A stretch of DNA of 64,000 nucleotides from positions 16,417-80,416 of the forward strand of contig CAVOUJ010000018.1 in NCBI GenBank assembly GCA_963699535.1, read 5' to 3'. The notes beneath the pieces are model-generated. The model worked only from the letters and a program-made list of their open reading frames with translations, was not told the DNA's origin and did no database searches. Positions 37,883 to 54,700 of the stretch are shown here, in pieces (the stretch's first letter is position 1; every line of letters begins with the position of its first letter). The DNA comes from an uncultured beta proteobacterium (GTDB taxonomy: Bacteria; Pseudomonadota; Gammaproteobacteria; Burkholderiales; SG8-39). A program made the translations under genes and the position numbers.

Positions 37883-38237
37883 GGGCTTCCTTCCGACCTT
37901 TGACCGTTTCCCGGATCGGCCGGATCGGCCGCACTTCGACGCTGCCCACCCGCGCGGGCGGGATCTTGGCGGCGAGAGCGGCCGCTTCGTCGAGGTCCCT
38001 GGCCTCGATGAGGTAGAACCCGGCGAGCTGCTCCTTGGTTTCGGCGAAAGGCCCGTCGGTGATGGATACCTTGCCGTTCCGGACCCGTACGGTCGCCGCC
38101 GTCTTCACCGACTCGAGAGCTTCCGAGGCGCTGCAGTGGCCGCTCTTGCGGATCTCGGTGTCGAAATCCACGCAATCTTCGTCGGGCAGCTCGGCCAGAC
38201 GATTCTCGTCAAGATAAACCAGGCAAAGGTACTTCAT
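37869..38237 (-). CDS. YciI/DGPF family protein
   Basis: DGPFAETKEQLAGFY, VEVRP. Confidence 0.9.
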   Translation of the reverse strand: MKYLCLVYLDENRLAELPDEDCVDFDTEIRKSGHCSASEALESVKTAATVRVRNGKVSITDGPFAETKEQLAGFYLIEARDLDEAAALAAKIPPARVGSVEVRPIRPIRETVKGRKEAHERR

Positions 38238-38276
38238 GTTCGCTCCGGATTCTGAACAACGGTCTTTTCGCTAGCG

Positions 38277-38711
38277 TTACGTCGGCCTACTTCGTTGCGA
38301 TGAACCCGAGCGCGCGCCTTCGCTCGAGGTCCCTCTCCTCCCCCTTGCAGCCGCCTTCGCCGAGTTCTGTTTCACTCTCAGCTTCACGATTCTTTCGATC
38401 AGGCCGTAGGGGATGGGCCGATCGAGCGGAAACCTCAAGTTGCCTTTCTCACCCGCATAGGCCGAAACCGCCCTTTCCAGGGTCGCATCGCCCTTCACCG
38501 GCGGATAGAACCCGATGTGCTCCTTGAAGGCGGCGAAGTACACCAGGGCGCCGTTCAGAGTGAAAGTCGGAATTCCATAGCTGATGGTCTCCTGCGCGCG
38601 GGGCGCCGCCTTGCTAATCGTCGACCTTATCCTTTCGAGAATCGCCCGGATCTCGGGCGAAAACGCTGTGATGTACTCGTCGATGCTCCGTGGCGATTTG
38701 CGCGTTGCCAT
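38277..38711 (-). CDS. DUF1801 (YdhG-like) protein
   Basis: SIDEYI, ETISYGIPTF, HIGFYP, LDRPIPY. Confidence 0.85.
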   Translation of the reverse strand: MATRKSPRSIDEYITAFSPEIRAILERIRSTISKAAPRAQETISYGIPTFTLNGALVYFAAFKEHIGFYPPVKGDATLERAVSAYAGEKGNLRFPLDRPIPYGLIERIVKLRVKQNSAKAAARGRRGTSSEGARSGSSQRSRPT

Positions 38712-38727
38712 GATGGTCTCTTGCCGG

Positions 38728-39144
38728 CTATTTCTTCTTTCCGATCTCCATCTCGCGGAAGCGATCGACCGCCTCACTCGGTCCGAAATCCTCCAGCTCG
38801 AAGAGCTGCCGGACCTCGATCTCGCACTCCTTCCCATCACCTGAGGGACTGGGAAAACGCCTCGCCCATTCCATCGCTTCTTCCCTCGACTTCACCTGGA
38901 TGAGCGTGTAACCGGCGATCAGTTCCTTGGTCTCGGCAAAGGGGCCGTCGATCACATTGCGCTTTCCCCCCGAGTACCGGACGCGCCAGCCCTTGGAGCT
39001 CGGCTTGAGCCCCGAGGCGTCCAGCAGCACCCCGGCTTTCTGCAATTCCTCGTGGTACTTCTGCATCTCCGACATGAGCTTCTCGGAGGGCAGGAGGCCG
39101 GCTTCCGAGTCCTTCGTGGCCTTGACTATCATCATGAATCGCAT
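38728..39144 (-). CDS. YciI/DGPF family protein
   Basis: MRFMMIVKAT, DGPFAETKELIAGY. Confidence 0.9.
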   Translation of the reverse strand: MRFMMIVKATKDSEAGLLPSEKLMSEMQKYHEELQKAGVLLDASGLKPSSKGWRVRYSGGKRNVIDGPFAETKELIAGYTLIQVKSREEAMEWARRFPSPSGDGKECEIEVRQLFELEDFGPSEAVDRFREMEIGKKK

Positions 39145-39218
39145 CGTCAATCCTCCATTGGCTCCGGTTTGGGCGTCGCCCTCCAGACGGTTTCGGCCGG
39201 AGCGAAGGCGCCTACTGT

Positions 39219-39247
39219 ACGACGAACGAGGCCGGTCGAAATCGACG
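39219..39247 (-). promoter_or_regulatory. ECF42-type promoter
   Basis: Minus strand cGTCGATTTCG-N7-TCGTTCGTCGT upstream of a DGPF gene. Confidence 0.75.
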
Positions 39248-39291
39248 CTCCGGCAAGTCTGCCCTGCCGGCCGAGGGCAGCCGAGGCGACT

Positions 39292-39720
39292 TCAGTTCTT
39301 CTTCGCCGCGACCTGCGCGCGCACGCGCTCCTCCTGCTCCCTCAGCTCGGGAGTGAACTCCGCGCCGAAGTCCTCCGCCTCGAACACCTGGCGGATCTCG
39401 ATCTCGGAATCCCCCGGCATCGGATTGGGGCAGCGCTTGACCCATTCGATCGCCTCTTCCTTCGACTTCACCTGCCAAATCCAGTAGCCGGCGATCAGCT
39501 CCTTGGTCTCGGCGAAGGGCCCGTCGATAACGGTGCGCTTGGCTCCCGAGAACCTGATGCGCGCGCCCCTCGAACTCGGGTGGAGCCCCTCGCCCTCGAG
39601 CATTACGCCGGCTTTCGCCAGCTCCTCGTTGTACTTCCCCATCGCGGCGAGGAGCTTCTCATCCGGCATCACGCCCGCCTCCGAGTCCTGGGTTGCCTTG
39701 ACTATGATCATGAATCGCAT
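39292..39720 (-). CDS. YciI/DGPF family protein
   Basis: MRFMIIVKAT, DGPFAETKELIAGY, EIEIRQVFE. Confidence 0.9.
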   Translation of the reverse strand: MRFMIIVKATQDSEAGVMPDEKLLAAMGKYNEELAKAGVMLEGEGLHPSSRGARIRFSGAKRTVIDGPFAETKELIAGYWIWQVKSKEEAIEWVKRCPNPMPGDSEIEIRQVFEAEDFGAEFTPELREQEERVRAQVAAKKN

Positions 39721-39788
39721 CGTCTTCTCCTATTAGTCGGGAGCGGGGCCTCCGGATGGTCCTGGCCGGACAACCTGGCTCTACTTGC

Positions 39789-39817
39789 ACGACGAACGAC
39801 AGGCAGCGAAATCGACA
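39789..39817 (-). promoter_or_regulatory. ECF42-type promoter
   Basis: Minus strand TGTCGATTTCG-N7-TCGTTCGTCGT; matches the TGTCGA/-CGTC ECF42 consensus. Confidence 0.8.
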
Positions 39818-39873
39818 GGTACAGTAGCTTTTCTTTTTGAAGTACTCGTCAAGTGTCGGCAGCGCTAGCCGGC

Positions 39874-40446
39874 TCACTCGGGCCTGAGCGCCTCGACCTG
39901 GATGCGCAGCGTGACGTCCGGCTTGAAGCCGTACTGCTCCCCATAGTCGATGCCGAAATCGCTTCGCTTGAAGGTGCCGAAGGCGTCGGCACCGCAAAGC
40001 TCGCGCTTGAAGAGAGGATGGGGGATGCACTTGAACAGATTGATCTTCAGAGCGACCGGCCTGGTCACACCGTGCAGGGTCAGCTCCCCGGTCAGCGTGG
40101 TGGGCGCCCCGTTGACGAAACGACCCAGCTTCCCTCTATAGGTAATCATCGGATACTTGGCAGCGTCCAGCTGGTCCGGACCCGCCACGTATTCGCTCAC
40201 CTTGGCGTGGCCGAAGTCGATGCTGGCCGTCTCGATCGCGACCTCCACTGTTCCGGTTCCGGCGACTTTATCCATGGTCACCTTGCCCGTGGTCTTGTTG
40301 AACTTGCCGCGCCAGATCGACAGGCCCATGTGGTCGGCCTCGAAGCTGGGATAGGTGTGCTCGGGATCGATGTTGTACGTGACCGGCGCGGCCGAAGCGG
40401 CGCCGCAGAGGGCGAGGCCGAGGGAAATCAGAAGGGCGTTCTTCAT
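39874..40446 (-). CDS. YceI family periplasmic protein
   Basis: Signal peptide, YNIDPEHT, GELTLHGVTRPV, KRSDFG. Confidence 0.88.
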   Translation of the reverse strand: MKNALLISLGLALCGAASAAPVTYNIDPEHTYPSFEADHMGLSIWRGKFNKTTGKVTMDKVAGTGTVEVAIETASIDFGHAKVSEYVAGPDQLDAAKYPMITYRGKLGRFVNGAPTTLTGELTLHGVTRPVALKINLFKCIPHPLFKRELCGADAFGTFKRSDFGIDYGEQYGFKPDVTLRIQVEALRPE

Positions 40447-40928
40447 GACGAGGTCTCTGCCAAATACTCTTCGAGGCGTCCCAGGTGCTGCTTCATCCCT
40501 TCGAAGGCCCCGTAGGTCTTGATGACGTAGTCGCGCGCCTTGGCCGACGGGAAGACCGAGTGCATGTCGAGGCGGGTCTTGCCGCCTTGCTCCACGAAGG
40601 TCACCGTCACGTGGAAATTCACGGGCTCAACTTCCTTGTCGCCGCCGTGCTTGTAGACGAGGCGTTCCGGCTTCACCACCTCGAGGTAGGTGATCTTGTT
40701 CCGGTAGTCTCGCCCGTCGGGGCCGTGCATCACAAAGCGCCACACCCCGCCCGGTTTCACCTCCATGCTGTGGGTCGTGGTGGTGAACCCGTTCGGGCCC
40801 CACCATTTCACGACGTGCTCCGGATCGGTCCAGACCCTCCAGACCAGCTCGCGTGGCGCGCTGAAGACGCGCGTCCCGTGGATCTCGCGGTCGCCGACCA
40901 ACGCGGCGCTCTCACTTTCTGCGGCCAT
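40443..40928 (-). CDS. SRPBCC/AHSA1 domain protein
   Basis: RVFSAPRELVW, WWGPNGF, MHGPDG. Confidence 0.87.
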   Translation of the reverse strand: MAAESESAALVGDREIHGTRVFSAPRELVWRVWTDPEHVVKWWGPNGFTTTTHSMEVKPGGVWRFVMHGPDGRDYRNKITYLEVVKPERLVYKHGGDKEVEPVNFHVTVTFVEQGGKTRLDMHSVFPSAKARDYVIKTYGAFEGMKQHLGRLEEYLAETSS

Positions 40929-42303
40929 GTTTCATCTCCTCGGTGATCAGATCGGCGAGACGGTCGAGGCTTTCGCTCCAGCCCTGGTTCTGGCCGCGGC
41001 CGGCCTCGCCCGGAGGCGTCGTCTGCCGCACGGTGAGCTTCGTCTTGCCGCCCTCCTCGGCGAACGTCACCGTGGTCACGAGCTCGTGGCCGGGAAGGTT
41101 GTCCAGGATCGCGGTGAAGACGATGCGCTCGGGTACTACGATCTCACGGTACACGCCTTGGAACGGGTAGTCCTGGCCGCCGGGTCCGCGCATTACGAAG
41201 CGATACGCGCCTCCCGGCCGGAAGTCCATCTCGCAGCCGGGCAGCGTGAAGCCTTTCGGTCCCCACCATCGCCTCACATGTGCGGGATCGCTCCACACCT
41301 TGAAGACCAGTTCGCGCGGCGCATCGAAAACGCGCGTGAGGATCATCTCGCCCGCGTGTCTGCCTTCGACGAAATCTTTCAGCGAAGTGCCGACGATCTC
41401 GGTCCAGCCTGCGACGAAATTCGCCTTTGCGAACGCGGGCAGCTTCGGGAAAGTCTCCAGGCCTGCGTGCGTCAGCCGCACCCGCGTATTGCTCCCCTGG
41501 GCGAACAGCTCGAAGGTCACCAGCGAGTCGCCCGCGTACCCCTCGTACCGCCACGTGTACGCCAGCCGCTTGTTGGGAATCGCCTCGGTTACCCTGCACC
41601 GATGAGAATACTTGGCTCCTTCGTCTCCGCCATAGAACTGGAATTCGAAGCCGACCACCGGCGCGAACTCGCGGATGTCGAAGGACCATTGCCTGATGTC
41701 CTCCTTGTCGGTGAGGGCCTTCCAGACCAGGGCGACCGGCGCATCGAAGGTGCGCTCGACGACGAGGGGCTCGTCCTGGGTCGCCAGCCGAACGTCCAGA
41801 CGCGCCCTCCTCAGGTCTTCGGCAAGCCGATCCAGGGATTCGCCCCAGCCTTGCTGGTACGCCTTCTGATTTTCCTTCGAAGCCCGCTCGAGGCCGGCGT
41901 GCTCCACGGTGACGGTCGTCTTGCCGTCGCGCTCGGTGAACGTCGCCGTGATCACCGACTCCTTCGGATGGCCCGGCGGCGGCTCGACGATGTTGCCGTG
42001 CTCATCCGAGAAGTAATCGGTGAAGACGAGGCGCTTTGGTTCGACGATTTCGCGGTACACGCCTTTGCCCCAGATTGCGTTGCCATCGGGTAGATTCACG
42101 CGAAAGTGAAGCGTGCCTCCCTCGCGGAGATCGACCTTGCAATAAGGCATGGTCGCGCCCTTCGGCTGGCCCCACCACTGCATGAGGTGCTCGCGCTCGG
42201 TCCACGCCTTGAAGACGAGGCGGCGCGGCGCGTCGAACACGCGCGTGAGAACAAGACCTCGCTGCTCGGGCTTGGCTGCGGCACTACTTTTTCTTGCGGC
42301 CAT
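40912..42303 (-). CDS. Triple SRPBCC/AHSA1 domain protein
   Basis: Three RxFDAP...GW.E repeats in one frame. Confidence 0.82.
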   Translation of the reverse strand: MAARKSSAAAKPEQRGLVLTRVFDAPRRLVFKAWTEREHLMQWWGQPKGATMPYCKVDLREGGTLHFRVNLPDGNAIWGKGVYREIVEPKRLVFTDYFSDEHGNIVEPPPGHPKESVITATFTERDGKTTVTVEHAGLERASKENQKAYQQGWGESLDRLAEDLRRARLDVRLATQDEPLVVERTFDAPVALVWKALTDKEDIRQWSFDIREFAPVVGFEFQFYGGDEGAKYSHRCRVTEAIPNKRLAYTWRYEGYAGDSLVTFELFAQGSNTRVRLTHAGLETFPKLPAFAKANFVAGWTEIVGTSLKDFVEGRHAGEMILTRVFDAPRELVFKVWSDPAHVRRWWGPKGFTLPGCEMDFRPGGAYRFVMRGPGGQDYPFQGVYREIVVPERIVFTAILDNLPGHELVTTVTFAEEGGKTKLTVRQTTPPGEAGRGQNQGWSESLDRLADLITEEMKHGRRK

Positions 42304-42637
42304 GTTCCTTCTCCTTGCGTTGCAGTTCCTTGAGGTAGGCGCCGAGCTTGTCGAAACTCTCCTCCCAATGGCGACGGTAGTACTCGACCCAGTCGGCGAC
42401 GCCCTTCAGCGGGGTCGCCTGGAGCCGGCAGGGCCGCCACTGCGCCTCTCGGCCGCGCGCGATCAAGCCCGCGCGCTCGAGCACCTTCAGATGCTTGGAG
42501 ACGGCGGGAAGGCTCATGTCGAAGGGCTCAGCCAGTTTCAGGACTGAGGTTTCGCCCGAGGCGAGCCGTGCGAGGATCGCGCGCCTTGTGGGATCGGCGA
42601 GAGCGGCAAAGGTCGAGCTGAGGCGATCGGGGGACAT
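42284..42637 (-). CDS. ArsR/SmtB family regulator
   Basis: FAALADPTRRAIL, PAVSKHLKVLE, GREAQWRPC. Confidence 0.9.
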   Translation of the reverse strand: MSPDRLSSTFAALADPTRRAILARLASGETSVLKLAEPFDMSLPAVSKHLKVLERAGLIARGREAQWRPCRLQATPLKGVADWVEYYRRHWEESFDKLGAYLKELQRKEKEHGRKKK

Positions 42638-42661
42638 GCAATGAATATCGGTAAACTGTAA

Positions 42662-42699
42662 TTAACCTATAGGTTAAATACAAACCCGCCCCTTGTCAA
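42662..42699 (-). promoter_or_regulatory. ArsR promoter/operator
   Basis: Perfect 16-bp palindrome TTAACCTATAGGTTAA (42662-42677) downstream of a minus-strand TTGACA (42694-42699). Confidence 0.75.
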
Positions 42700-42872
42700 A
42701 TAAGGTAGACCGGCCCGACACCTCGGACAGTTCATGCCGAGCCAGCGCTTAGTCCTTGACCCGGCGCCCGACCCACAGCGGACGCGGCGGCCGCTAACCC
42801 CTTTTGTCGGGCGCGGCCGGATCGATGTACAATCCACCGGTCGAGTAGACCACCACCAACCAGGGGAGGGAC

Positions 42873-43367
42873 GTGGCCCACCTGGATTTAGCGACGGAGA
42901 TCATCGTCTCCGAGAGCCGCCGCGCCCGAGGGCGAGGATTGGGGCGGCCGCTTGGGCTGCGCACGGATGTCATCCTGAGTTACGGCGAGCGGCGCCGAGT
43001 CGAAGAGCTTGCCGCGTTCGACTTCACCCTGGTGCGCAATCGGCTGGTCCAGCAGGGATTGCTGCCCGAGGAGTGGGCCGATATGGCCATCCTGGAGTTT
43101 CGGCGCTATCTGGCCTTGCGATTGCTGAGCCCGGGCCCCGTCATGATGCTCAGTGCCGTCGTCGACGAGGTCTGGCACGCGAGCATCCTCTTCACACGGC
43201 TATACGCGGACCTGTGCCAGCGCGTCCTCGGCTACTTCTTGCACCACGACCCGGAGATGCAGCCCATCGCGGACCCTGGCGCCGAATGGCGGGTCTTCGA
43301 AGAACGCTACACCGCCCTGTTTGGGGCACCGGGACCGCTCTGGCAAGCGTGGCAGCCTCTGGAGTAA
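42873..43367 (+). CDS. GRDP/DUF1399-like domain protein (stand-alone)
   Basis: EFRRYLAL...SAVVDEVWHASILFTRLYADLCQRVLGYFLHHDP...FEERYTALFG; RBS GGGAGG; upstream TTGTCG-18-TACAAT. Confidence 0.7.
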   Translation: MAHLDLATEIIVSESRRARGRGLGRPLGLRTDVILSYGERRRVEELAAFDFTLVRNRLVQQGLLPEEWADMAILEFRRYLALRLLSPGPVMMLSAVVDEVWHASILFTRLYADLCQRVLGYFLHHDPEMQPIADPGAEWRVFEERYTALFGAPGPLWQAWQPLE

Positions 43368-43397
43368 CACCGGAAAACATCAAAAGGAGGAAAACTG

Positions 43398-43943
43398 ATG
43401 GCACAGCTCAAGCTCGATCTCAATAACGCCAGCACAGGTGATCCCATCCAGGTGGAGGCGCGCTCCGCACTCACCGTGCCCGAGGCCATCGACCGACGTA
43501 CCATTCGACAGGCGATCATGACGCAACTGCTGATCGAAATCGCCGACGAGATCATCAATAAGGGTGCGAGGCTCGAGGTGGTGCGCGAGGATGGAGAGGT
43601 CGTCAAGAGCAACCTCATGACTCTCTACAATAGCAATCAGCTCCCCTTGCTCCGTGCCCTTATCAAGGACCCGGAGGCCGCATTCAACGCGCGCCGCAAC
43701 AAGCTCTTTGTCGAAGAAAACCCCAAAGACCCTTCTGCCCCTCCTGCCCGTAAGCCTTTTGGCTCGATCAACCTAGCCGTCTTTCGGAATGCAATGGCCC
43801 TCGGCGACGGCAAGTCGCCCCTCAAGCCCGAACAGGTCGAAGAGGTGGCGAAGCGCGTGATGATACGGGCTGGCCGGTCCAGCGGCTACGGAAAACGGTT
43901 GAGCGAAGCCTACGACGATCGTGGTTTCGCAGGGTGCAAATAG
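43398..43943 (+). CDS. Hypothetical protein with no recognised family, ends ...GFAGCK
   Basis: Strong RBS AAGGAGG, 30 nt after the upstream gene, natural amino-acid composition. Confidence 0.75.
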   Translation: MAQLKLDLNNASTGDPIQVEARSALTVPEAIDRRTIRQAIMTQLLIEIADEIINKGARLEVVREDGEVVKSNLMTLYNSNQLPLLRALIKDPEAAFNARRNKLFVEENPKDPSAPPARKPFGSINLAVFRNAMALGDGKSPLKPEQVEEVAKRVMIRAGRSSGYGKRLSEAYDDRGFAGCK

Positions 43944-43959
43944 AAGCTGGCGAGCCCGA

Positions 43960-45087
43960 TCATCTGTCTACTGACCTGGCGCCAGGTGATGCAGCCCTGG
44001 GGCCGGGCGCCTGCCGCGGTTCGCGGGAAGCGCTCGTTCCCAGGAACTCCGTGACCTGAAGGGCGATGCTGTCCGGGAGGGTGATGCCGAGACCCCGAGC
44101 GGTCTCCAGGTTGACGACCAAGATGAATGTGCTCGGCTGTTCGACCGGAAGCTCGGCGGGGTTAGCACCGCGGAGGATCTTGTCGACGTGGGTGGCGGCG
44201 CGACGGTAGAGGTCGGGAAGGTTGGGGCCGTACGACATGAGCCCGCCCGCGACGACATACGGACGCAGATCGTGCACGGTCGCCATGCGATGCTCGCGCG
44301 CGAAGCGAGCGATCTCCGCCCGCCTGGCAAAGAAGAGCTGATCGCCCAGCGGAACAATCGCGCCCACTCGCTCTGACTTCGCACTCTGCAGGGCGGCCGC
44401 CAGCTCCTCGGGGGCTCGGACGCGGCGGGCGACGACGTGGATGTTCGAAGCTGAGGCCGCGGCCTCCGTCTCTCGCAGGCCGGCCTGGGCGCTCGAATTG
44501 TCCGGGTTCCACAGGACCAAGATGCGTCGGATCGAAGGCATCGTCTCTTTGAGCAAGACGAGCCGCTTGGCCGCCAGCCCCGGGGCGAGCAGGCTCATCC
44601 CGGTAATGTTGCCCCCAGGCCGTGCCAGGCTCTTCACGAACCCCGACTCCACCGGGTCACCGCTATTCGTCATGACGATTGGAATCGAGCGGGTGGCTTT
44701 CTGTGCCGCCTCGGTTGGGACGGTCCCGCCCGTGACGATGACATCGACACCCAGTCGAACGAGGTCTTCCGCGGCCGCACGCACGAGGTCGGAGTCGGAA
44801 CCCGTGTAACGATACTCGACCGTCAGATTCACTCCGTCGACCCACCCGTGCTCCTCCATGCCCTGGAGAAAGTTGCGGGTTCCGCTCAAACGCGGGTCGG
44901 GATCCTCTGGGGCCATGAAGCCAATGCGTACCATCTTGGGCGGGGTTTTGGTCGGGGCTGGCGTGGCGCCCGGTTTTGGAGTCGGCGAGGGCGTGGAGTC
45001 GCACCCGCTGAGCAGGCTCACAGCAAGCAGGCAGGCGCAGCTCAGGGAAAGAGCGCCGCGCCAGAACGGTCCCGACTTGGGCTTCAC
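43960..45087 (-). CDS. ABC transporter substrate-binding lipoprotein (ABC_sub_bind/COG2984)
   Basis: Lipobox LSGC, DPVESGFVKSLARPGGNITG, GGLMSYG, LPVEQP. Confidence 0.85.
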   Translation of the reverse strand: MKPKSGPFWRGALSLSCACLLAVSLLSGCDSTPSPTPKPGATPAPTKTPPKMVRIGFMAPEDPDPRLSGTRNFLQGMEEHGWVDGVNLTVEYRYTGSDSDLVRAAAEDLVRLGVDVIVTGGTVPTEAAQKATRSIPIVMTNSGDPVESGFVKSLARPGGNITGMSLLAPGLAAKRLVLLKETMPSIRRILVLWNPDNSSAQAGLRETEAAASASNIHVVARRVRAPEELAAALQSAKSERVGAIVPLGDQLFFARRAEIARFAREHRMATVHDLRPYVVAGGLMSYGPNLPDLYRRAATHVDKILRGANPAELPVEQPSTFILVVNLETARGLGITLPDSIALQVTEFLGTSASREPRQAPGPRAASPGARSVDR

Positions 45088-45156
45088 AAGGGGTCTTCCT
45101 TGGTCGCGTCCACCGGCGAGTATAGTCCTCCGTCTGTCGGACGTTGCAGGCCCCGC

Positions 45157-46722
45157 TCAGTCGCGTGAGCGCGGCCCGCTCCGTTGGACTTTGCCGCCCG
45201 GGCCCCGGGGCAGCTCGGAGACCACGTCGACCCGCCGCAGGCGCTTGTGCTCAGCCAGGCGATCCGCGGCGTGCGCGATCAAGGCTTCGCCACTCACCTC
45301 GTGTCCGGGGCGCAGCACGACGTAGGCCCGCGGCACTTCGCCGTAACGCGGCGAGCGCATCGGGACCACGACCGCGTCTGCGACCGCAGGGTGCTCCAGC
45401 AGGGCTGCTTCGACCTCCGCGGGAGCGACCGGCAGGCCTCCCACCTTGAGCATCTGTTTCGTCCGTCCGACGATGACCAGATGACCGCGAGCGTCCTGGC
45501 GGGCCAGATCGCCGGTGCGCATCCAGCCGTCGAGGCCAAATGTCGCCGCAGTCGCCTCCGGCTGGTTCCAGTAGCCGACGGCGACCTGCGGGCCGCGGAT
45601 GAGCACCTCGCCGATCTCGCCCGTCGCGACGTCGGCGTCAGTCCCGGGAATGATGATCCGCTCCTCCGTGTCGGGTACCGGGCAGCCCACTGAGGTGGCG
45701 TTCACTTCTCCGAGAGGCACGCGATTGGCCGCCCCGCCAGTCTCGGTGAGATGGTAGGCTTGGACCACCGGGCAATGGAACGCGCGCTCCGCCAGGCTCG
45801 CAGTAGAGGGCGGCAAGGGCTCGCCGCCGGTTTCGATCACGCGCAGCGTCGGCGTCGCCTGCGGTGAGCTGAGCGCGCGCTCGGCCAACTGGCGCAGGTA
45901 CGTGGGCCGCACCATGAGATGGGTGGCGTGGTGCGCTCCGAACATGGCCAGCGTCTCGTCGGCCTCGAGCCAGCTCTGCGCGATGGCGGTAGCGCCCTGT
46001 GCGAACACCAGGCGAATCGAGTTAGAGAACAAGCGGAGGGTCATGACGATGCTGTCGGGGGTCACCCAACCGGTCGCCGCGAGCTGGCGGCTCGATGCGG
46101 TGAGGTTTGTGTGCGTGAGCATGGCCCCTTTCGGCAGCCCGGATGTGCCGCTGGAATACGGCAGCAGTGCGATGTCTCGCAGTGGGTCGATCACCACCTC
46201 GTCCGGGTCGTGGCGCTCAGCCTTCTGCAGCTCCCAGATGTCTTCGAGGGCGCGAATCCACCGGACGCTGTCGAGCTCACCCAGGATGGCGAGCTGCTCG
46301 ATGGTCCACAAGAGCGGCGCGGGCGCCACGGCCACGACGGCGTTGGCATCGGTCAGATGTGCCAGCAGCTCCCGTTCCTTCAGTTTCGCATTGAAGGTCG
46401 TGACCCGCGCACCGGCCAGGAAGGCGCCGTACATCGCGACGACGAGCTCACGCGTCGCCGCCGCCCCGAGTGCCACGGTCTCGCCGGGGGCGAGATTGGC
46501 TTCCCGCTGCAGCAGCGCGGCCACGCGTCGTGCGCCTTCCCACAGGTCACGATACGTCGACCGCGTCCCGGCGGCGTCGATCAGGGCGATCTTATCGGGG
46601 AAGCGCTCCGCCCCACGCCGCAGATCCGCCCATGCGGGCTCCTCCGGGTAAGGGCGCAGGGAACGCCAGGGACTTCGCAGCACCGGAGCAGACCACTCTA
46701 GTGCCAGGTTCACCTTGACCAT
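45157..46722 (-). CDS. AMP-binding acyl-CoA ligase (class I adenylate-forming)
   Basis: YSSGTSGLPKG, GGEPL, YHLTETG, RTGDL, GRTKQMLK, GKV. Confidence 0.85.
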   Translation of the reverse strand: MVKVNLALEWSAPVLRSPWRSLRPYPEEPAWADLRRGAERFPDKIALIDAAGTRSTYRDLWEGARRVAALLQREANLAPGETVALGAAATRELVVAMYGAFLAGARVTTFNAKLKERELLAHLTDANAVVAVAPAPLLWTIEQLAILGELDSVRWIRALEDIWELQKAERHDPDEVVIDPLRDIALLPYSSGTSGLPKGAMLTHTNLTASSRQLAATGWVTPDSIVMTLRLFSNSIRLVFAQGATAIAQSWLEADETLAMFGAHHATHLMVRPTYLRQLAERALSSPQATPTLRVIETGGEPLPPSTASLAERAFHCPVVQAYHLTETGGAANRVPLGEVNATSVGCPVPDTEERIIIPGTDADVATGEIGEVLIRGPQVAVGYWNQPEATAATFGLDGWMRTGDLARQDARGHLVIVGRTKQMLKVGGLPVAPAEVEAALLEHPAVADAVVVPMRSPRYGEVPRAYVVLRPGHEVSGEALIAHAADRLAEHKRLRRVDVVSELPRGPGGKVQRSGPRSRD

Positions 46723-46846
46723 CTTAACCTTGGCTCGCCATCACAGATTGCGGCCCTCGGCCGAGAGGGCGCCGCCGGCGAAGTGTTCTTGATGAGGACC
46801 GCTGACCGGGTGGTCGTCTGATTTCTTCATGGTTCGGCTCCCGAGG

Positions 46847-46955
46847 CTATCGACCGGCGTAGGCCTTCTTCAAGCCTTCGATGTCGATTTTCTTCTTCTT
46901 CAACATCGCCTGCATGACTCTTTTGGATTTCTCGGGATCGGGATCGCCCAGGTGG
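46847..46955 (-). pseudogene. C-terminal remnant of a PhnB-like VOC protein
   Basis: [34 protein letters not shown] with no N-terminal part. Confidence 0.6.
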
Positions 46956-47025
46956 CGCCTCAGTCCGGCCCGTCGCCACTGGGGGCAGACGCACAGTTGA
47001 AGCTGCGCCCGCAGAAGCCTCCGGT

Positions 47026-47798
47026 CTATGTCTTCAGCCGATACCCGGTTCTGAAGATCCACGCCACGACGGCGAGCGACACCGCGAGGAACACGGCCGT
47101 CACGAGCGAGGCTCACGCCGACGCCGACGTCGGCGATCCCGTAGAAGCTCCAGCGGAATCCGCTCACGAGGTAGACCACGGGGTTGAACAGCGACACCGT
47201 CTGCCAGAACGGCGGCAGCATGTCGATGGAGTAGAAGCTGCCGCCGAGAAACGTCAGCGGCGTGATGATCAGGAGCGGTATGGCCTGGAGCTTCTCGAAA
47301 CCGTCCGCCCAGATGCCGATGATGAAGCCGATCAGGCTGAAGGTCACCGAGGTCAGCACCAGGAACAGGATCATCCAGACCGGATGCTCGATCCTGAGCG
47401 GCACCAGCAGCGCCGCGGTCGCGAGGATGATGAGGCCGAGGACGACCGATTTGGTCGCGGCCGCCCCCACGTAGCTCACCACGATCTCGAGATAGGACAC
47501 CGGCGCCGACAGCAGCTCGTAGATGGTCCCGGTGAACTTCGGGAAAGTAGATGCCGAACGATGCATTGGAGATGCTCTGCGTCAGGAGCGACAGCATGAT
47601 CAGCCCCGGCACGATGAAGGCGCCGTAGCTGACGCCCTCGACCTCGGGGATGCGCCCGCCGATCGCCGCGCCGAAGACGACGAAGTACAAGGCCGTCGAA
47701 ATCACCGGGGCGATGATGCTCTGCATCAGCGTGCGCCGCGTGCGCGCCATCTCGAACTTGTAGATCGCGCGGATCGCGTAGAGGTTCATGCCGCTCAT
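47026..47798 (-). CDS. ABC-2 permease (YadH-like), two frameshifts
   Basis: [43 protein letters not shown]. Confidence 0.82.
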
Positions 47799-48721
47799 TT
47801 CTTCTCTCTCACCAGGGTGACGAAGATGTCCTCGAGCGAGCTTTGCGTCGTGTGGAGGTCCTTGAACCGGATGCCCGCCCCGGTCAGCGCGTACAGCATC
47901 GCGGCGATCCCGGCCCGATCGCCCCGCTCCTCGTACGTATAGATCAACTCGGCTCCATCCTTCGCCAGCTCGAGGTTGTAGGCGGAGAGCGCGGGCGGAA
48001 TGCCCTCCAGCGTCTTCTCCAGGTGCAGCGTCAGCTGCTTCTTGCCGAGCTTGCGCATCAGCTCGGCCTTGTCTTCCACGAGGATGATCTCGCCTTTGTT
48101 GATTACCCCGATCCTGTCGGCCATCTCTTCGGCCTCGTCGATGTAATGGGTGGTGAGGATGATGGTCACGCCGGCGGCCTGGAGGGAACGCACCAGCTTC
48201 CACATCTCCTGTCTCAGCTCGACGTCGACGCCCGCGGTCGGCTCGTCCAGGAACAGGATCCGCGGCTCGTGCGACAGCGCCTTGGCGATGAGCAGGCGCC
48301 GCTTCATGCCGCCCGAGAGGGTCATCACCTTGCTGTCCTTCCTTGCCCAAAGGGACAGGTCCTTCAGCACCTTTTCGATGTGCGCGGGATCGGCCGGCTT
48401 GCCGAAGAGTCCGCGGCTGAAGGACACGGTGTTCCACACCGATTCGAACGCGTCGGTCGTCAGCTCCTGCGGCACGAGACCGATCAGGCTGCGCGCGGCC
48501 CGGTAGTCGGCGACGATGTCGTGGCCGTCCACGAGAATCTTCCCCTGGCTCGGATTGACAATCCCGCAGATGATGCCGATCAGCGTCGTCTTCCCCGCGC
48601 CGTTGGGACCGAGCAGCGCGAAGATCTCCCCGCGGCGAATCTCCAGGTTGATGCGCTTGAGTGCCTGGAGACCGGAGGCGTAGGTTTTCGAGAGGTTCGC
48701 TACCGAGATGATCGGTTGCAT
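47795..48721 (-). CDS. ABC transporter ATP-binding protein (YadG-like)
   Basis: [26 protein letters not shown]. Confidence 0.9.
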
Positions 48722-48746
48722 GAGTGCTGTGCTTCAGGTGGACGGC

Positions 48747-49829
48747 TCAAAGCCTCGCCAGAATGCGGAGGCCCTCGGCGATGCGCTCGATCTCGCGGAT
48801 CTTCAAAGCCTTGGCCTGCGAAAGCTCGGTCAGCTCAGGCAAGTGGAACATTCCACGCCCGGAGTCGCCGATGATGCTCGGCGCAAGGTAGACGAGCAGC
48901 TCGTCCACCACGCCCGCCTGGAGCAGCGAGCCGTTCAGCTTGGTTCCCGCTTCGACGTGGATCTCGTTCAGCTCCCGCCGCGCGAGTTCTTCCATCAGCT
49001 TGAAGAGCTCGACCTTGCCTCGGTCGTTCGGGATGATGACGATCTCCGCACCGGCCGACTTGAGCGCGGCGATTCTCTCCTCATCGTTCACGGCGCCGGC
49101 GATGAGCGTCTTCCCGTCCTTGAGAAGACGCGCCGAGGGTAGAGTCTCGAACTTCGAATCGACGACGATCTTGAGCGGCTGCCTCGGCGTGTCGATTCCG
49201 CGCACGTTGAGCTGCGGATCGTCGTCCCGGACGGTGCCGAAGCCGGCGAGTACCGCGCAGGCGCGCGCCCGCCAGCGGTGGCCGTCCGCCCTCGCCGCCT
49301 CACCCGTGATCCACTGGCTCTTGCCGTTCGCGAGCGCGGTGCGGCCGTCCAGGCTCGCCGCGATCTTCATGCGCACCCAGGGCCGGCCGCGCGTCATGCG
49401 CGCGACAAAGCCGATGTTGAGCTCGCGCGCCTCGTCTTCCCTCAAGCCCTGCTCGACCGCGATCCCCGCCGCGCGCAGCTTCGCAAAACCCGCGCCCGCG
49501 ACTTTCGGGTTCGGGTCCCGCATCGCGGCGACGACACGCGCAATGCCCGCCGCGACGATGGCGTCGGCGCAGGGCGGGGTGCGTCCGTGATGGCTGCAGG
49601 GCTCGAGGTTGAGATAGAGCGTCGCCCCGCGGGCCTTCGCACCGGCAGCCTGGAGCGCGAGCACCTCTGCGTGCGGCATCCCCGCCTTCTCGTGCCAGCC
49701 TTCGCCCACGACCGCGCCGTCCCTGACGATCACGCAACCGACGCGCGGATTGGGGGTCGTCGTATACAGGCCGCGCCCGGCGAGCGCCAGCGCCCGCCCC
49801 ATGAGCTCGTGGTCGGCGGCGGAGAACAT
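48747..49829 (-). CDS. ribD: Riboflavin biosynthesis deaminase/reductase
   Basis: [34 protein letters not shown]. Confidence 0.93.
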
Positions 49830-50312
49830 CACTTCGGCGGCGCGGCGCGTGCGCTTGCTGCCCGGCTTCTTCACCTCGAGTATCGCCTCGCGGAAGTCGT
49901 CCACGCGCTGGAAGTCCTCGTACACCGAGGCGAAGCGGATGTAGGCGACGTCGTCCATCTTCTTCAGCTCGCGCATCACCATCTCGCCGATGACGCGGCT
50001 CGGGATTTCGCGCTCGCCGAGCGCGAGGATGCGCTGCTCGATGCGGGTGATCGCCTCGTCGACGTACTCGGTCGGCACCGGCCGCTTGTGCAGGGCGCGC
50101 ATGAACCCGGTGCGGATCTTCTCGACCTCGTAGGGAACGCGGTTGCCGTTGGTCTTCACCACCATCGGCATGGAAAGCTCCACGCGCTCGTAGGTGGTGA
50201 AGCGCTTGGCGCAGGACTCGCACTGGCGCCTGCGGCGCGTGCTGTCGCCGTCCTCCGACTCGCGCGAGTCGATGACCGCAGTATCTTCGGCCTTGCAGTA
50301 AGGGCATTTCAT
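49829..50312 (-). CDS. nrdR: Transcriptional repressor NrdR (reads in-frame into ribD as assembled)
   Basis: [24 protein letters not shown] cone, [10 protein letters not shown]. Confidence 0.92.
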
Positions 50313-50319
50313 GTCAGGT

Positions 50320-50368
50320 CCACCACTCCGGCGCTTCGCGCCACCCCTCCTCTTCCGAGGAGGGGAAG
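50320..50368. repeat. REP-like intergenic palindromic element
   Basis: ccaccactccggcgcttcgcgcca followed by hairpin cccctcctc-ttcc-gaggagggg. Confidence 0.55.
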
Positions 50369-50389
50369 GGATCAGCCCGCGGCGACGCG

Positions 50390-51682
50390 CTACGCCCCGG
50401 CCGCTTCCGCCGCGCGCTGGGCATTCGCGGTTTCAGCCACCCGGTATACGGGGAAGCGCGCGCAGAGCTCCTTCGTCTCGCCGGCCACGCGCTTCAGCGT
50501 TTTTTCGTCCTGCGGAGCATCGAGCACGTCGGCGATGAGGCTCCCCATGCGCCCGGCCTCGGCCTCGCGGAAACCACGGGTCGTCATCGCGGGAGATCCC
50601 AGGCGGATGCCGCTCGTCACCGTGGGTTTCTCAGGGTCGTTGGGGATGGCGTTCTTGTTGACCGTGATGTGGGCCCTGCCGAGCGCGACTTCGGCGTCGC
50701 GACCAGTGGTGCGCTTCGCGCGCAGGTCGACGAGGAACATGTGCGAGTCGGTGCCGCCGGAGACGATGCGCAGACCGCGTTCCTGAAGGGCATTCGCCAT
50801 CGCCCTGGCATTCGCCATCACCTGCTTCTGGTAGTCGCGGAACGCGGGCTCGAGCGCTTCCTTGAAGGCCACGGCCTTGGCGGCGATGACGTGCATCAAC
50901 GGCCCGCCCTGGAGGCTCGGGAAAATGCTCGCGTTGAGTATCTTCTCGTGCTCGGCTCCCGCCAGGATCAATCCGCCGCGAGGCCCGCGCAGCGTCTTGT
51001 GCGTGGTGCTCGTCACGAAGTGCGCGATTCCTATGGGGCTGGGATAGAGGCCGGTAGCGATCAGCCCGGCGTAGTGTGCGACGTCGGCCATGAACCAGGC
51101 GCCGATGCGGTCGGCGATCGCGCGAAAGCGCTTCCAGTCGATGACCCTCGAATACGAGGAAGCGCCGGCGACGATCATTCGGGGCCGGTGCGCGTTCGCG
51201 AGCCGCTCGACTTCGTCGTAGTCGATGCGCTCGTTCGCATCGAGCCCGTAGGCATGCGCCTGAAAGATCTTCCCGCTGATGTTGACCGAAGCGCCGTGGG
51301 TGAGGTGCCCGCCGTGGGCGAGCGACATGCCGAGGATCGCGTCGCCCGGCTTCAGCACCGAAAGATACGCCGCCTGGTTCGCCTGCGCGCCCGAGTGCGG
51401 CTGCACGTTGGCGTACTCGGCGCCGAACAGCTTCTTCGCGCGGTCGATGGCGAGCTGCTCGGCGATATCGACGAATTCGCAGCCGCCGTAGTAGCGCTTG
51501 CCCGGATAGCCCTCGGCGTACTTGTTGGTGAGCTGCGAGCCCTGAGCGGCGAGCACCGCGGGGCTGACGTAGTTCTCGGAGGCGATCAGCTCGACGTGGT
51601 CTTCCTGGCGCTGGTTTTCCTGCTGTATCGCCGCCCAGAGCTCCGGGTCGACTTGATGCAGGGTCTTGTTGGGATTGAACAT
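50390..51682 (-). CDS. glyA: Serine hydroxymethyltransferase
   Basis: [34 protein letters not shown]. Confidence 0.96.
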
Positions 51683-51750
51683 TTCTTGGAAACCTAGGGT
51701 GGGGGTGCGAGGGCGAATATTACCATCCCCAGTGTTTCCGGGACTCAGTT

Positions 51751-54700
51751 TCATCGGCCAGCGGCACGGTTCTTCTCAGACGCCTGTGCCCTTACTGCGT
51801 CGAAGATCTCCCTCGCCAGAATCGGAAACGCCGCGCTCTGAAACTCCCGGTCGTCCATGTAGCGGGTGACGATCTTGTCGTTCTCGGCCATGCGCTCGAT
51901 CATGAGGTCCTCGATCAGCTTGCGGATGCCGAGCTCGAACTTGTCGAGCGGATTGGCGAGCGCCGTCTGGATGACCTGCTCGTTCTTGGCAGGCCTTCTC
52001 CTTGATCTGCTGGAAGAAGAGGCGGTCTTCCTCGGTGAACTGGTGCCGAAGCGTTCGTTGAGCACCTCGATGATCTCGGACAGCGGCACCTTCTCGTCCT
52101 TGGCCTTGCCGGTGCCGACATCGGTCGGGCTCTTGACGTACTGCGCCTCGCCCTCCTTGAGCGTCGATCGCGCCCGAGAAGACGCGCTCCAGCCGGTAGT
52201 ACTGCAAGCGCCACCTCGTCGCCGACCTTGATCGATCGTCGTGTCGCGGTCGAGCGGCAGATGCGGCAGCAGGAACCGTCCGTAGCTGTAGAGCATCTCC
52301 AGGTCCGGATCGGCGTAGGGGATGATCTGGCTCAGGAACGCGTAGATCTTCACGTAGCCGCCGAGCTTCTCGCGGAACTCCTCGCGCTTGTCTTCGTCCT
52401 CGATCGCCTTGAAGCGGTCCACGGCCGGCTGCAGGTGCCGCTGCATGTGCGCGTGGTCGGCGGCGCTCTGCCGCTCCGTCGGCTTGTAGAAGACTCTGCG
52501 CGAAGGCCTCGACCTCGCTCCAGTGGTAGACCTGCGCCTGATCGAGCTCGTGCTTCAGCGCTTCGAGCTGCGCGGGATCGGACGCCTCCTGCCAGGCTCG
52601 GTCGTGTCGTAGTAGGGCTTGAACGCGCGGTAGATGTTCTCCGGCGTCGTTGACGAAGTCGAGCACGAACGGCGCGTCCTTGCCGGGAATCATGCGGTTG
52701 AGCCGCGAAAGCGTCTGCACCGCCTGCACGCCGTCGAGCCGCTTGTCCACGTACATCGTGTGCAGCAGCGGCTGGTCGAAGCCGGTCTGGTACTTGTTGG
52801 CGACCAGCAGGACCTGGTAGTCCGGCGAGTCGAAGCGCTCGGGCAGCTGCGCTCTCGCTGATCGGCTTGCCGGTGACGACGTCGGTGTTCATGCCCGGCT
52901 CGGTGTACTCGAGGCCCGTCTCCGGGTCGCGCACCGTGCCGCTGAAGGCCACCAGCGGCCGGATGTCGGTGTAGCCGTTCTCCGCGATGTAGCGCTCGAA
53001 CGCCAGCATGTAGCGCACGGCGTGCAGGCGCGACGACGTGACCACCATCGCCTTGGCCCGCCCGCCGAGCCGGTGCTTCACGCTGCGGCGGAAGTGCTCG
53101 ACCATCACCTCGGTCTTCTGCTCGATGTTGTGCGGGTGCAGGCTCATGAACTTGGCCAGCGCCCGCGCCGCCTTCTTCTTCGGCAGCTCGGGATCGTCCT
53201 CGGCCGCCTTGAGCAGCCGGTAGTAGGTGGCGTAGGTCGTGTAGTTCGTCAGCACGTCGAGGATGAAGCCCTCCTCGATCGCCTGCCGCATGCTGTAGAT
53301 GTGGAAGGCCTCCGGCTTGCCGCTCGGCGCCCGGCCGCCCGAACAGCTCCAGCGTCTTGCCCTTGGGCGTGGCGGTGAAGGCGAAGAAGCTCAGGTTCGG
53401 CTGCCGCCCGCGCGACTGCATGACCTGGTTCAGCCGGTCTTCCCAGTCCGGCTTCGCCCTCGTCGTTCTCGTCTGCCGCCGCGCCGAGGATCGCCTTCAG
53501 CTCGCGCGCCGTCTCGCCGGTCTGGCTGGAGTGCGCCTCGTCCACGATCACGGCGTACTTGCGCTTGCGCGATCGCCGCCTCCCACGCCTTCGCCTGCTG
53601 CCTTCTCCTCCGTCGGTCGCCTTCTCCTGGCTCTCGGCGCCGGCCGCGTGCAGCAGGCCGCGCAGCACGAAGGGGAACTTCTGCAGCGTGGTGATGACGA
53701 TCTTGGTGCCGTCGATCAGCGCCGCCGCGAGCTGCTTGCGAGTCCTGGTCGATCGCCTTGACCACGCCCTGCGCGTGCTCGATCTGGTAGATCGCGTCCT
53801 GAAGCTGCTGGTCGAGCACGCGCCGGTCGGTGATGACGATGACGCAGTCGAAGACCTTCGCGGTCCTGCGCGTCGTGCAGGCTCGCCAGCCGGTGCGAGA
53901 GCCAGGAGATGCTGTTGGTCTTGCCGCTGCCCGCCGAGTGCTGGATCAGGTAGTTGCGGCCCGGCCCTTCGCCGCGCGCCGCGGCGACGAGCTTCCGCAC
54001 CGCGTCGAGCTGGTGGTAGCGCGGGAAGATCATCGTCTCCTTGGTGACCCGCCGCTGGCCGCCCTTGCCGTCGTCGACCTTCTCCTCCTTCTTCTCGACG
54101 AACATGAAGTGCCCGAGGATGTCGAGGAAGCTGTCGCGCTGCAGCACCTCTTCCCAGAAGTAGCCGGTGCGGTAGCCGGACGGATGCTGCGGGTTGCCCG
54201 CGCCGCACTGCACCTCGCCCGGATGGCTGCCGCGGTTGAAGGGCAGGAAGTGCGTCTCCTCGCCGCGCAGCCGCGTGGTCATGTGGACTTCGTCCGGGTC
54301 GGCGGCGAAGTGCACCAGCGCGCGCGTCTTGAACTCGAACAGCGGCGCGCGCGGGTCGCGGTCCTCCTGGTACTGCCGCACCGGCATGGCGCCAGCTCTG
54401 GCCGGTGCCGGGATTCTTCAGCTCGCAGGTCGCGACCGGCAGGCCGTTCACCGCGAAGACGCAGGTCGACCGTGTCGTGCTTGCCCGGGATGGCAGGGCA
54501 CCTGGCGCGTGACCGTCAGCCGGTTCTTGCGCGTAGAGCGCCAGCACCTCGTCGTTCAGGCCGTGCGCCGGCTTGAAGTAGGCGAGGCGGAAGGTCTTGC
54601 CGTAGAACTTGAAGCCGTGCCGCAGGACGTGGAGCGTGCCCTTGAGGTCCAGCTCCTTGACCAGCGCGTTGAGGAGCAGGTCTTCCAGGCCCGCGCCGTG

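Follow-up and report, generated by a model that had tools for sequence, protein, structure and literature searches.

The DNA analysed here (the window) is a stretch of 64 000 nucleotides (nt) from contig CAVOUJ010000018.1 of an uncultured beta proteobacterium (assembly GCA_963699535.1), and our subject is a pair of adjacent genes on its plus strand together with the four-gene accessory island in which they lie. Gene 1 (42873..43367), characterized through its open reading frame (ORF), its homologs and a structure model, has a GTG start and encodes a tail-less UCP032817-like (PF27765) helical protein of 164 amino acids (aa), which carries VDEVWHASILFTRLYADLCQRVLGYFLHHDP and whose last residues are WQPLE. 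Gene 2 (43398..43943, plus strand) has an ATG start and encodes an orphan helical protein of 181 aa with constrained blocks and near-neutral spacers. Its C-terminus reads GRSSGYGKRLSEAYDDRGFAGCK, the sole Cys being residue 180 of 181, and residues 165–181 (43890..43940, plus strand) make up a C-terminal tail predicted to be disordered, with the GFAGCK end at 43923–43940. The two genes are separated by a spacer of 30 nt (43368..43397) that contains an AAGGAGG ribosome site and is bridged by RNA-library contigs of relatives; GGAGG-type ribosome sites are located upstream of both gene starts. A promoter-like site, TTGTCG-18-TACAAT, lies in front of gene 1 on the same strand (42804..42833): in a promoter scan one site was seen versus 0.3 expected from shuffled sequences, and in an alignment of upstream regions the TACAAT box was retained in 8 of 10 while the −35 box showed no conservation. 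No terminator was found in a promoter and terminator scan of the gene-pair region. Both ORFs have the positions, lengths and ends described in an initial annotation of this DNA, which had also pointed out the promoter-like site and the strong type of the two ribosome sites.

Each gene is present as a single copy in its own genome. The initial annotation had proposed co-transcription: RNA-library contigs of relatives, from two studies, reach from the last part of gene 1 into gene 2 and lend weak support to expression as a single unit, such contigs being unable to prove one transcript. The RNA runs covered just small shares of the stretch, and the parts of gene 2 without contig cover are uninformative. 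The idea of a self-contained two-gene operon had to be revised, as the pair turned out to be part of the accessory island, which also carries an AMP (adenosine monophosphate)-forming ligase and a binding protein.

The families of gene 1 and gene 2

For gene 1, a large protein collection contains 83 homolog clusters and all of them, including the window's own protein (P0001), carry the label PF27765.1; this assignment is taken from the precomputed labels of the collection. The nearest ESM Atlas clusters are PF27765 as well (score 0.96), with 90% PF27765 in the nearest one. The Atlas names this family 'UCP032817-like', and in one of its clusters 10% of the members are also PF07173 (GRDP-like), the family of the plant glycine-rich domain proteins with relatives in bacteria. 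A direct hmmscan of gene 1, against libraries lacking the PF27765 model, yielded no Pfam or NCBIfam family at E ≤ 1, PF07173 included, and the protein fails the gathering score of PF07173 (DUF1399; 22.7 bits), so that the DUF1399-like label of the initial annotation was replaced by the sister family PF27765. The homologs form a close group of 164–195 aa (71–90% identical to the window protein) and a second group of about 147 aa (40–53% identical), to which ∼47 metagenome clusters belong. Using a profile of both groups we detected weaker relatives in 22 genomes of a 401-genome sample of the phylum; among 25 distant ORFs from the gene-1 profile five matched PF07173, three of them above its cut-off, and a gene-1 profile search of the genome contigs returned two loci only. 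Because the PF27765 labels are found on the clusters themselves and PF07173 is reached only by distant relatives, gene 1 is, judged by sequence, a PF27765 protein that is remotely related to DUF1399 and stands outside DUF1399 proper.

Gene 1 and the PF07173 proteins have the core Asp-x-x-Trp-His…Tyr-x-x-x-Cys…His-His-x-Pro in common, whereas the Gly-rich tail is missing in gene 1. In 24 superfamily sequences, which are 18–49% identical to gene 1 and include the PF07173-positive loci L009, L013 and L017, the residues D98, W101, H102, Y111, C115, H124, H125 and P127 are invariant. Comparison with 14 loci gave ratios of non-synonymous to synonymous substitution rates (dN/dS) of 0.20–0.34 for gene 1, indicating purifying selection. 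Stand-alone bacterial proteins of PF27765 (∼140–160 aa) resemble gene 1 in size and in their all-helical fold prediction. The family description contains no function or partner, and according to the searches made, the pairing with a protein ending in Cys-Lys (CK) and the ligase cassette described below fall outside it. We found no literature mentioning 'UCP032817' or 'PF27765', and the available parts of the plant DUF1399 literature report phenotypes and no biochemistry.

For gene 2 we found 46 clusters in 5.8 billion proteins and 14 representatives in a set of 1.84 billion. Two of these 14 representatives, P0135 (sequence inspected) and P0136 (judged from the match listing), are long repeat proteins matched over short stretches and were taken as chance matches. 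Gene 2 is present in one of the 401 phylum-sample genomes and absent from all 36 genomes of the same family that were searched, including 30 of the same genus. The CK end occurs in 43 of the 46 clusters; the remaining three include P0102, a short fragment of 134 aa from a contig of 803 nt. In an alignment of 44 sequences 42 terminate in xxxGCK, and a distant relative of 136 aa has the C-terminus GGEDCK. The penultimate Cys of this orphan protein, singled out in the initial annotation, is thus conserved. Within its own genome gene 2 is the only one of 3640 ORFs of at least 100 aa to end in CK, the background being made up of greedy ORF calls with spurious frames included. The stretch between the last conserved block of gene 2 and its C-terminus varies from 12 to 45 residues.

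The two genes differ in their evolution: gene 2 showed dN/dS values of 0.42–1.16 versus 17 related loci, compared with the above range of 0.20–0.34 for gene 1 in the same genomes. The constrained blocks of gene 2 comprise residues 31–45 (ratio of non-synonymous to synonymous differences, pN/pS, of 0.14), residues 121–135 (pN/pS 0.29) and also residues 151–165, and the spacers between the blocks are near neutrality with pN/pS values of 0.9–1.1. These values were obtained from 15 pairs, L034 and L038 having been excluded as near-duplicates of L033 and L037. Given the number of homolog clusters (83 for gene 1 and 46 for gene 2), purifying selection on the former and constrained blocks in the latter, we regard both genes as genuine, beyond chance.

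Structure models were compared with known folds for both proteins. The AlphaFold2 model of gene 1 is all-helical with a mean predicted local distance difference test score (pLDDT) of 87.9, and that of gene 2 (mean pLDDT 79.6) consists of a confident helical body and a disordered end, pLDDT values being below 50 at residues 165–169 and 178–181. Foldseek found no match in the PDB at E ≤ 0.001 for either model and, for gene 2, none among viral models; the best hits of VIA-align wide had Z values of 4.1 for gene 1 (root-mean-square deviation (rmsd) 4.6, 89 aligned) and 4.3 for gene 2 (rmsd 3.6, 79 aligned), which gave no usable fold match. Profile searches of PDB sequences, that of gene 1 included, reached a best E of ∼1, and the ESM Atlas held no usable match for gene 2. 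An NCBIfam scan yielded no TIGR04222 match in either protein, and membrane segments were likewise absent, the models being soluble and helical.

The initial annotation had thought of gene 2 as the precursor in a system of the kind known for peptides that are made on ribosomes and modified after translation (RiPPs). The predicted structure, a folded helical protein of 181 aa plus a tail, speaks against a short precursor of this type, and no NHLP/Nif11 leader match was obtained at E ≤ 1, with an hhalign probability of 0.13% against NHLP. Two other identities were considered for gene 2: FlhC scored 12–13 bits versus cut-offs of 27 and 216 and was rejected as a chance match, and RatB antitoxin, the name one source gives to a gene-2 homolog, is supported by no model. 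One relative, P0130, combines a twin-arginine-like start (MKRRAFLTSAG...) with a GFLGCK end; its product may be located outside the cell, or else its start may be miscalled.

Partners, tails and the accessory island

In 15 of the 20 metagenome loci identified by a gene-2 profile search, gene 2 is immediately preceded on its strand by gene 1. The remaining five were not assessable: L036, L044, L047 and L048 have at most 150 nt of upstream sequence and L049 is a partial match of 25 residues. The check for co-occurrence thus came out in favor of the pairing put forward in the initial annotation. The gene-2 loci have downstream genes in common, recognized by eye from their translations, and therefore stem from related organisms, so that the 15 adjacencies do not represent independent events.

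Evidence of a different kind came from distant relatives of gene 1 in the phylum sample. A Cys within the last 12 residues is found in 19 of 26 distinct distant domain ORFs, compared with 674 of the 3640 background ORFs (18.5%), and 17 of the 26 contain at least two Cys among the last 25 residues, compared with 10% of the background. Typical ends of these cis tails read GGCGGCGGD, one reads GTCK, and three of the relatives consist of the N-terminal domain, a TIGR04222 domain and a Gly/Cys tail. Gly/Cys tails in cis, which the initial annotation had described for this domain, are accordingly borne out for bacteria. The neighbors of the cis-tailed relatives include housekeeping genes such as purD and xseA. 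Among the closer homologs of gene 1, 81 of 83 clusters have no Cys among the last 12 residues.

We further searched 39 genomes of another order, namely the one containing the metagenome-assembled genome behind locus L028, and found tail-less gene-1 homologs in three of them, plus one broken fusion. In genome G432 the gene-1 homolog is followed, after a gap of 11 nt, by a 174-aa protein with the end FKIVGECK. No similarity between this partner and gene 2 could be detected (hhalign probability 0.3%; BLASTP E = 3), and the partner's sole relative found, P0138, ends in LVKDCK. As a CK end occurs once in 3640 ORFs, a second, unrelated CK-ended family at the same position is very unlikely to arise by chance. 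In genome G427 (7.1 Mb) the gene-1 homolog faces a 78-aa precursor of the NHLP clan (NF038399, 41 bits at a cut-off of 40) that ends in ASSGCGLCGD; this genome holds 18 NF038399 matches scattered over several contigs (L066, L071, L074 and L075), and four other copies that we read have the Cys-free end DNPxxPGDAFPxGPF. A Cys-tailed neighbor was encountered in G432 and G427; it was missing in G401. Taken with cis tails as the rule, these unrelated Cys-tailed partners provide independent support for the idea that domain and tail have been split. A helix-DP-helix motif common to the three partner types was considered and found not to be significant.

Two further observations were made at these loci. 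At L029 (G402:C23, 2855–4445) a family-2 glycosyltransferase ORF is continued by the N-terminal half of a domain like that of gene 1, whose remainder lies in another frame; this is either a frameshifted fusion or an error of the assembly. Genes for a histidine kinase and a response regulator border the gene-1 homolog or the module of binding protein and ligase at L058 (G427:C24, 4109–6645) and L059 (G432:C349, 592–2562) as well as in G428 (L065), an arrangement that hints at regulated expression.

The pair is part of an accessory island of ∼4.3 kb with four genes (42700..47025), the edges of which are good to ∼10 nt. When window positions 38000–52000 were compared by BLAST with 30 congeneric genomes, the matches ended near 42700–42706 and restarted near 47021–47031, and in at least 10 congeneric genomes the aligned island flanks abut on one contig, forming a clean empty site (alignment A3). 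Gene 1, gene 2, the binding protein and the ligase are thus gained or lost as one island. The serine hydroxymethyltransferase encoded on the contig is 71–91% identical to its congeners and 50–55% identical to the other order, and because of the former values the contig belongs to its genus; no difference in GC content was seen between the island and its flanks. The third gene (43960..45087, minus strand) is convergent with gene 2 and encodes a substrate-binding protein of PF04392 (ABC_sub_bind) that bears a lipoprotein-type signal (LLSGC), and the fourth (45157..46722, minus strand), upstream of the binding-protein gene, encodes an AMP-binding ligase resembling acyl-coenzyme A (acyl-CoA) synthetases. 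The island contains no protease, transporter, known RiPP enzyme, multinuclear non-heme iron enzyme (MNIO), mobility or phage genes.

The ligase is about as rare as the pair. None of the 30 congeneric genomes contains an ortholog, and at E ≤ 1e-100, with three candidates scored per genome, the own genome was the only one of the 401 in the phylum sample to have it. Orthologs occur in three of the 39 other-order genomes, and in two of the three (G427 and G432) at most 5 kb separate the ligase from the gene-1 homolog, with differing orders and orientations. At metagenome locus L047 a ligase with 84% identity follows gene 2 directly and in the same orientation. The ligase hence remains near the pair through four different gene arrangements. 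Its own sequence matches generic acyl-CoA synthetase models only, every match being below the cut-off.

The proposed module and its alternatives

We propose that the two genes form the core of a four-gene cassette and constitute a split form of a widespread module in which a UCP032817/GRDP-like domain is combined with a flexible, Cys-bearing C-terminal tail whose thiol works with the pocket of the domain, a reading to which we give an even chance of being right. Gene 1 would supply the tail-less domain and gene 2 the tail, that is, a disordered linker of variable length with a Gly-Cys-Lys end, carried on a fast-evolving helical body. The invariant Asp-x-x-Trp-His, Tyr-x-x-x-Cys and His-His-x-Pro motifs would form a pocket, probably metal-binding, that takes in the tail, and the thiol of the tail would be the working group, either being modified in the pocket or completing the site. 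The AMP-forming ligase may give an activated acyl group, which is the least supported step of the scheme. Physical binding between the two proteins, the metal and any chemistry are what we infer. The cassette represents an uncharacterized domain-plus-Cys-tail module in a new variant that is split and portable; the enzyme-plus-substrate idea of the initial annotation is in this sense partly supported and considerably extended.

The adjacency of gene 1 and gene 2 resembles the arrangement of enzyme and precursor in RiPP systems of the NHLP/Nif11 type, and in G427 a tail-less homolog does face a precursor of the NHLP clan whose C-terminal core bears Cys; gene 2, in contrast, is a folded 181-aa protein without similarity to NHLP. 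A second point of comparison is provided by the TIGR04222 proteins. In the available parts of PMC12452194 their Cys-rich tails are proposed as substrates of MNIO enzymes, the N-terminal part is suggested to help biogenesis, and 40% of the signal-less Cys proteins encoded before MNIO genes are reported to be TIGR04222 proteins. The gene pair and the TIGR04222 proteins have in common the idea of a Cys tail as the business end and an N-terminal part that perhaps aids its maturation. However, the pair has neither a TIGR04222 domain nor membrane segments, and its tail bears a single Cys and ends in Lys.

Several observations weigh against the proposed module. The 15 adjacencies come from close relatives with downstream synteny in common, and the greedy calling of the background ORF sets admits spurious frames into the counts of Cys and CK ends. 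Among the 26 distant relatives seven have no Cys tail, the gene-1 homolog of G401 is followed by a 314-aa protein that lacks such a tail, and a second gene-1 copy in G427 has an internal stop codon and adjoins a monooxygenase. As neither model matches a solved fold, the proposed site is without catalytic precedent. With regard to the ligase, G428 has the binding protein and the ligase in the absence of the gene 1/gene 2 pair, and no AMP-binding gene was found beside 24 cis-tailed loci, so that a role of the ligase would at most be specific to this subgroup.

A more far-reaching version of the proposal, which we put forward as a tentative possibility, is that the UCP032817/GRDP-like domain, including the plant DUF1399, is a small metalloenzyme of a new kind whose substrate would be a Cys near a C-terminus, either of its own tail or of a client protein, and that here, together with the AMP-forming ligase, it would produce an acylated or otherwise modified Cys-Lys end. 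If true, this would amount to a pathway of protein or peptide modification of a class not yet described.

The Cys of the tail could also be a ligand instead of a substrate, in which case the two proteins would form a metal or redox complex, serving as buffer, chaperone or sensor, with no covalent change taking place. We consider this rather unlikely. The invariant set includes typical metal ligands (three His, one Cys and one Asp), the metallothionein-like GGCGGCGGD tails of the cis relatives are cytoplasmic by the positive-inside rule as read by eye, and bufferin-type Cys-rich peptides are copper chelators according to the accessible passages of PMC12452194. However, a single-Cys tail such as GFAGCK chelates poorly in comparison to tails with several Cys, and the ligase would be left without a role. 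The island furthermore adjoins an operon with an ArsR-family regulator, which would fit a metal-related function, but this neighbor is present in congeners lacking the island and the adjacency is therefore an accident of the insertion site.

Two explanations appear improbable to a similar degree. The first regards gene 2 as a carrier or scaffold: the ligase would load an acyl or aminoacyl group onto the Cys thiol or the adjacent Lys, and gene 1 would process or transfer it. The matching rarity of the ligase ortholog (1/401; 0/30 congeners) and its position beside the pair across four arrangements would be accounted for, as would the constraint on gene 2, which is limited to short blocks and the tail and otherwise near-neutral as in a scaffold; scaffold-peptide pathways that build small molecules at a C-terminus exist, as far as the available excerpts of the literature show. 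Yet the ligase reaches nothing beyond generic acyl-CoA synthetase models below their cut-offs, it occurs with the binding protein but not the pair in G428, and it is missing near the cis-tailed relatives. We also know of no carrier protein with a working terminal Cys, which we count against this explanation.

The second, to which we attach just as little weight, is a conflict system, i.e. toxin–antitoxin or anti-phage defense, with gene 2 evolving fast through an arms race. The accessory nature and patchy distribution of the island, the tight two-gene operon and the dN/dS values of gene 2, which are high relative to those of gene 1, would be in line with such a system. Against it, neither protein matched a PADLOC or PHROGs family at E ≤ 1, these libraries covering described systems only, and gene 2 had no viral fold match. 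Moreover, the same domain is fused to Gly/Cys tails amid housekeeping neighbors (purD, xseA), and the companions of the pair are a ligase and a binding protein on an island without mobility or phage genes.

Modification of the Cys tail by an MNIO/DUF692 enzyme encoded elsewhere, which would reduce gene 1 to a recognition partner, has very little to recommend it. It could draw on the association of TIGR04222 with MNIO reported in the available parts of PMC12452194 and on the presence of one MNIO gene (DUF692, PF05114) in the own genome. This single gene is, however, found on contig C11 and not on the contig of the island, within a complete bufferin-type operon (L050, C11, 113711–117496) made up of a four-Cys signal-peptide precursor, the MNIO, a DUF2063 protein and a DoxX-like membrane protein; the pair itself showed no membership in an MNIO-dependent RiPP system. 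A gene resembling a sigma factor lies upstream of L050 on the opposite strand. None of the 54 neighbors at the 24 cis-tailed loci encodes an MNIO enzyme, and no MNIO match was obtained in G427, G401 or G278, the last being a 100% complete genome with Gly/Cys-tailed domain proteins. Since MNIO is encoded only on another contig and is missing both near the cis-tailed loci and in G278, the MNIO route is unlikely for the cassette. The accessible text of PMC12452194 likewise states that MNIO is absent from one third of the TIGR04222 genomes.

That the two genes have no functional link, being neighbors by descent in one clade with a coincidental C-terminal Cys, would suit the related origin and common synteny of the gene-2 loci and the tail-less homologs without a Cys-tailed neighbor, but it is hardly credible in view of an unrelated CK-ended partner family in another order (background 1 in 3640), the only Cys-tailed NHLP copy among those read adjoining the G427 homolog, and cis fusions of domain and tail as the rule.

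Domains of the DUF1399/GRDP-like and UCP032817-like types are distributed from bacteria to plants without known biochemistry, and most members carry the presumed partner, a Gly/Cys tail, on the same chain, which makes them hard to study. Here, domain and tail reside on separate soluble proteins (164 and 181 residues), just one Cys is present in the tail and a ligase is the natural companion, so that a clean experiment on binding, metal content and mass changes (by mass spectrometry) becomes possible. The finding is also relevant to the question of what modifies Cys-rich tails in TIGR04222-type proteins when a genome, as is the case for many, has no MNIO, and the pairing with unrelated partners offers a testable handle on the role of the PF27765 family.

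The insertion site and its surroundings

On the left side, the island adjoins a cluster at 39874–42637 that consists of the ArsR-family regulator gene followed by genes for AHSA1/SRPBCC proteins, one of them with three repeats, and for YceI. A perfect palindrome, TTAACCTATAGGTTAA, is found at 42662–42677 in front of the regulator gene and is retained in congeners that lack the island. The right edge is crossed by an ORF on the minus strand (46847–47566) that contains the C-terminal half of an ABC-2 permease domain; as its final ∼60 residues come from island DNA, the insertion may have altered the end of this protein. In a minus-strand ORF of 521 aa further downstream (48750–50312), a cytidine-deaminase domain and RibD_C are joined to the zinc ribbon and ATP-cone of NrdR; the ORF looks like an nrdR-ribD fusion or the product of a lost stop codon.

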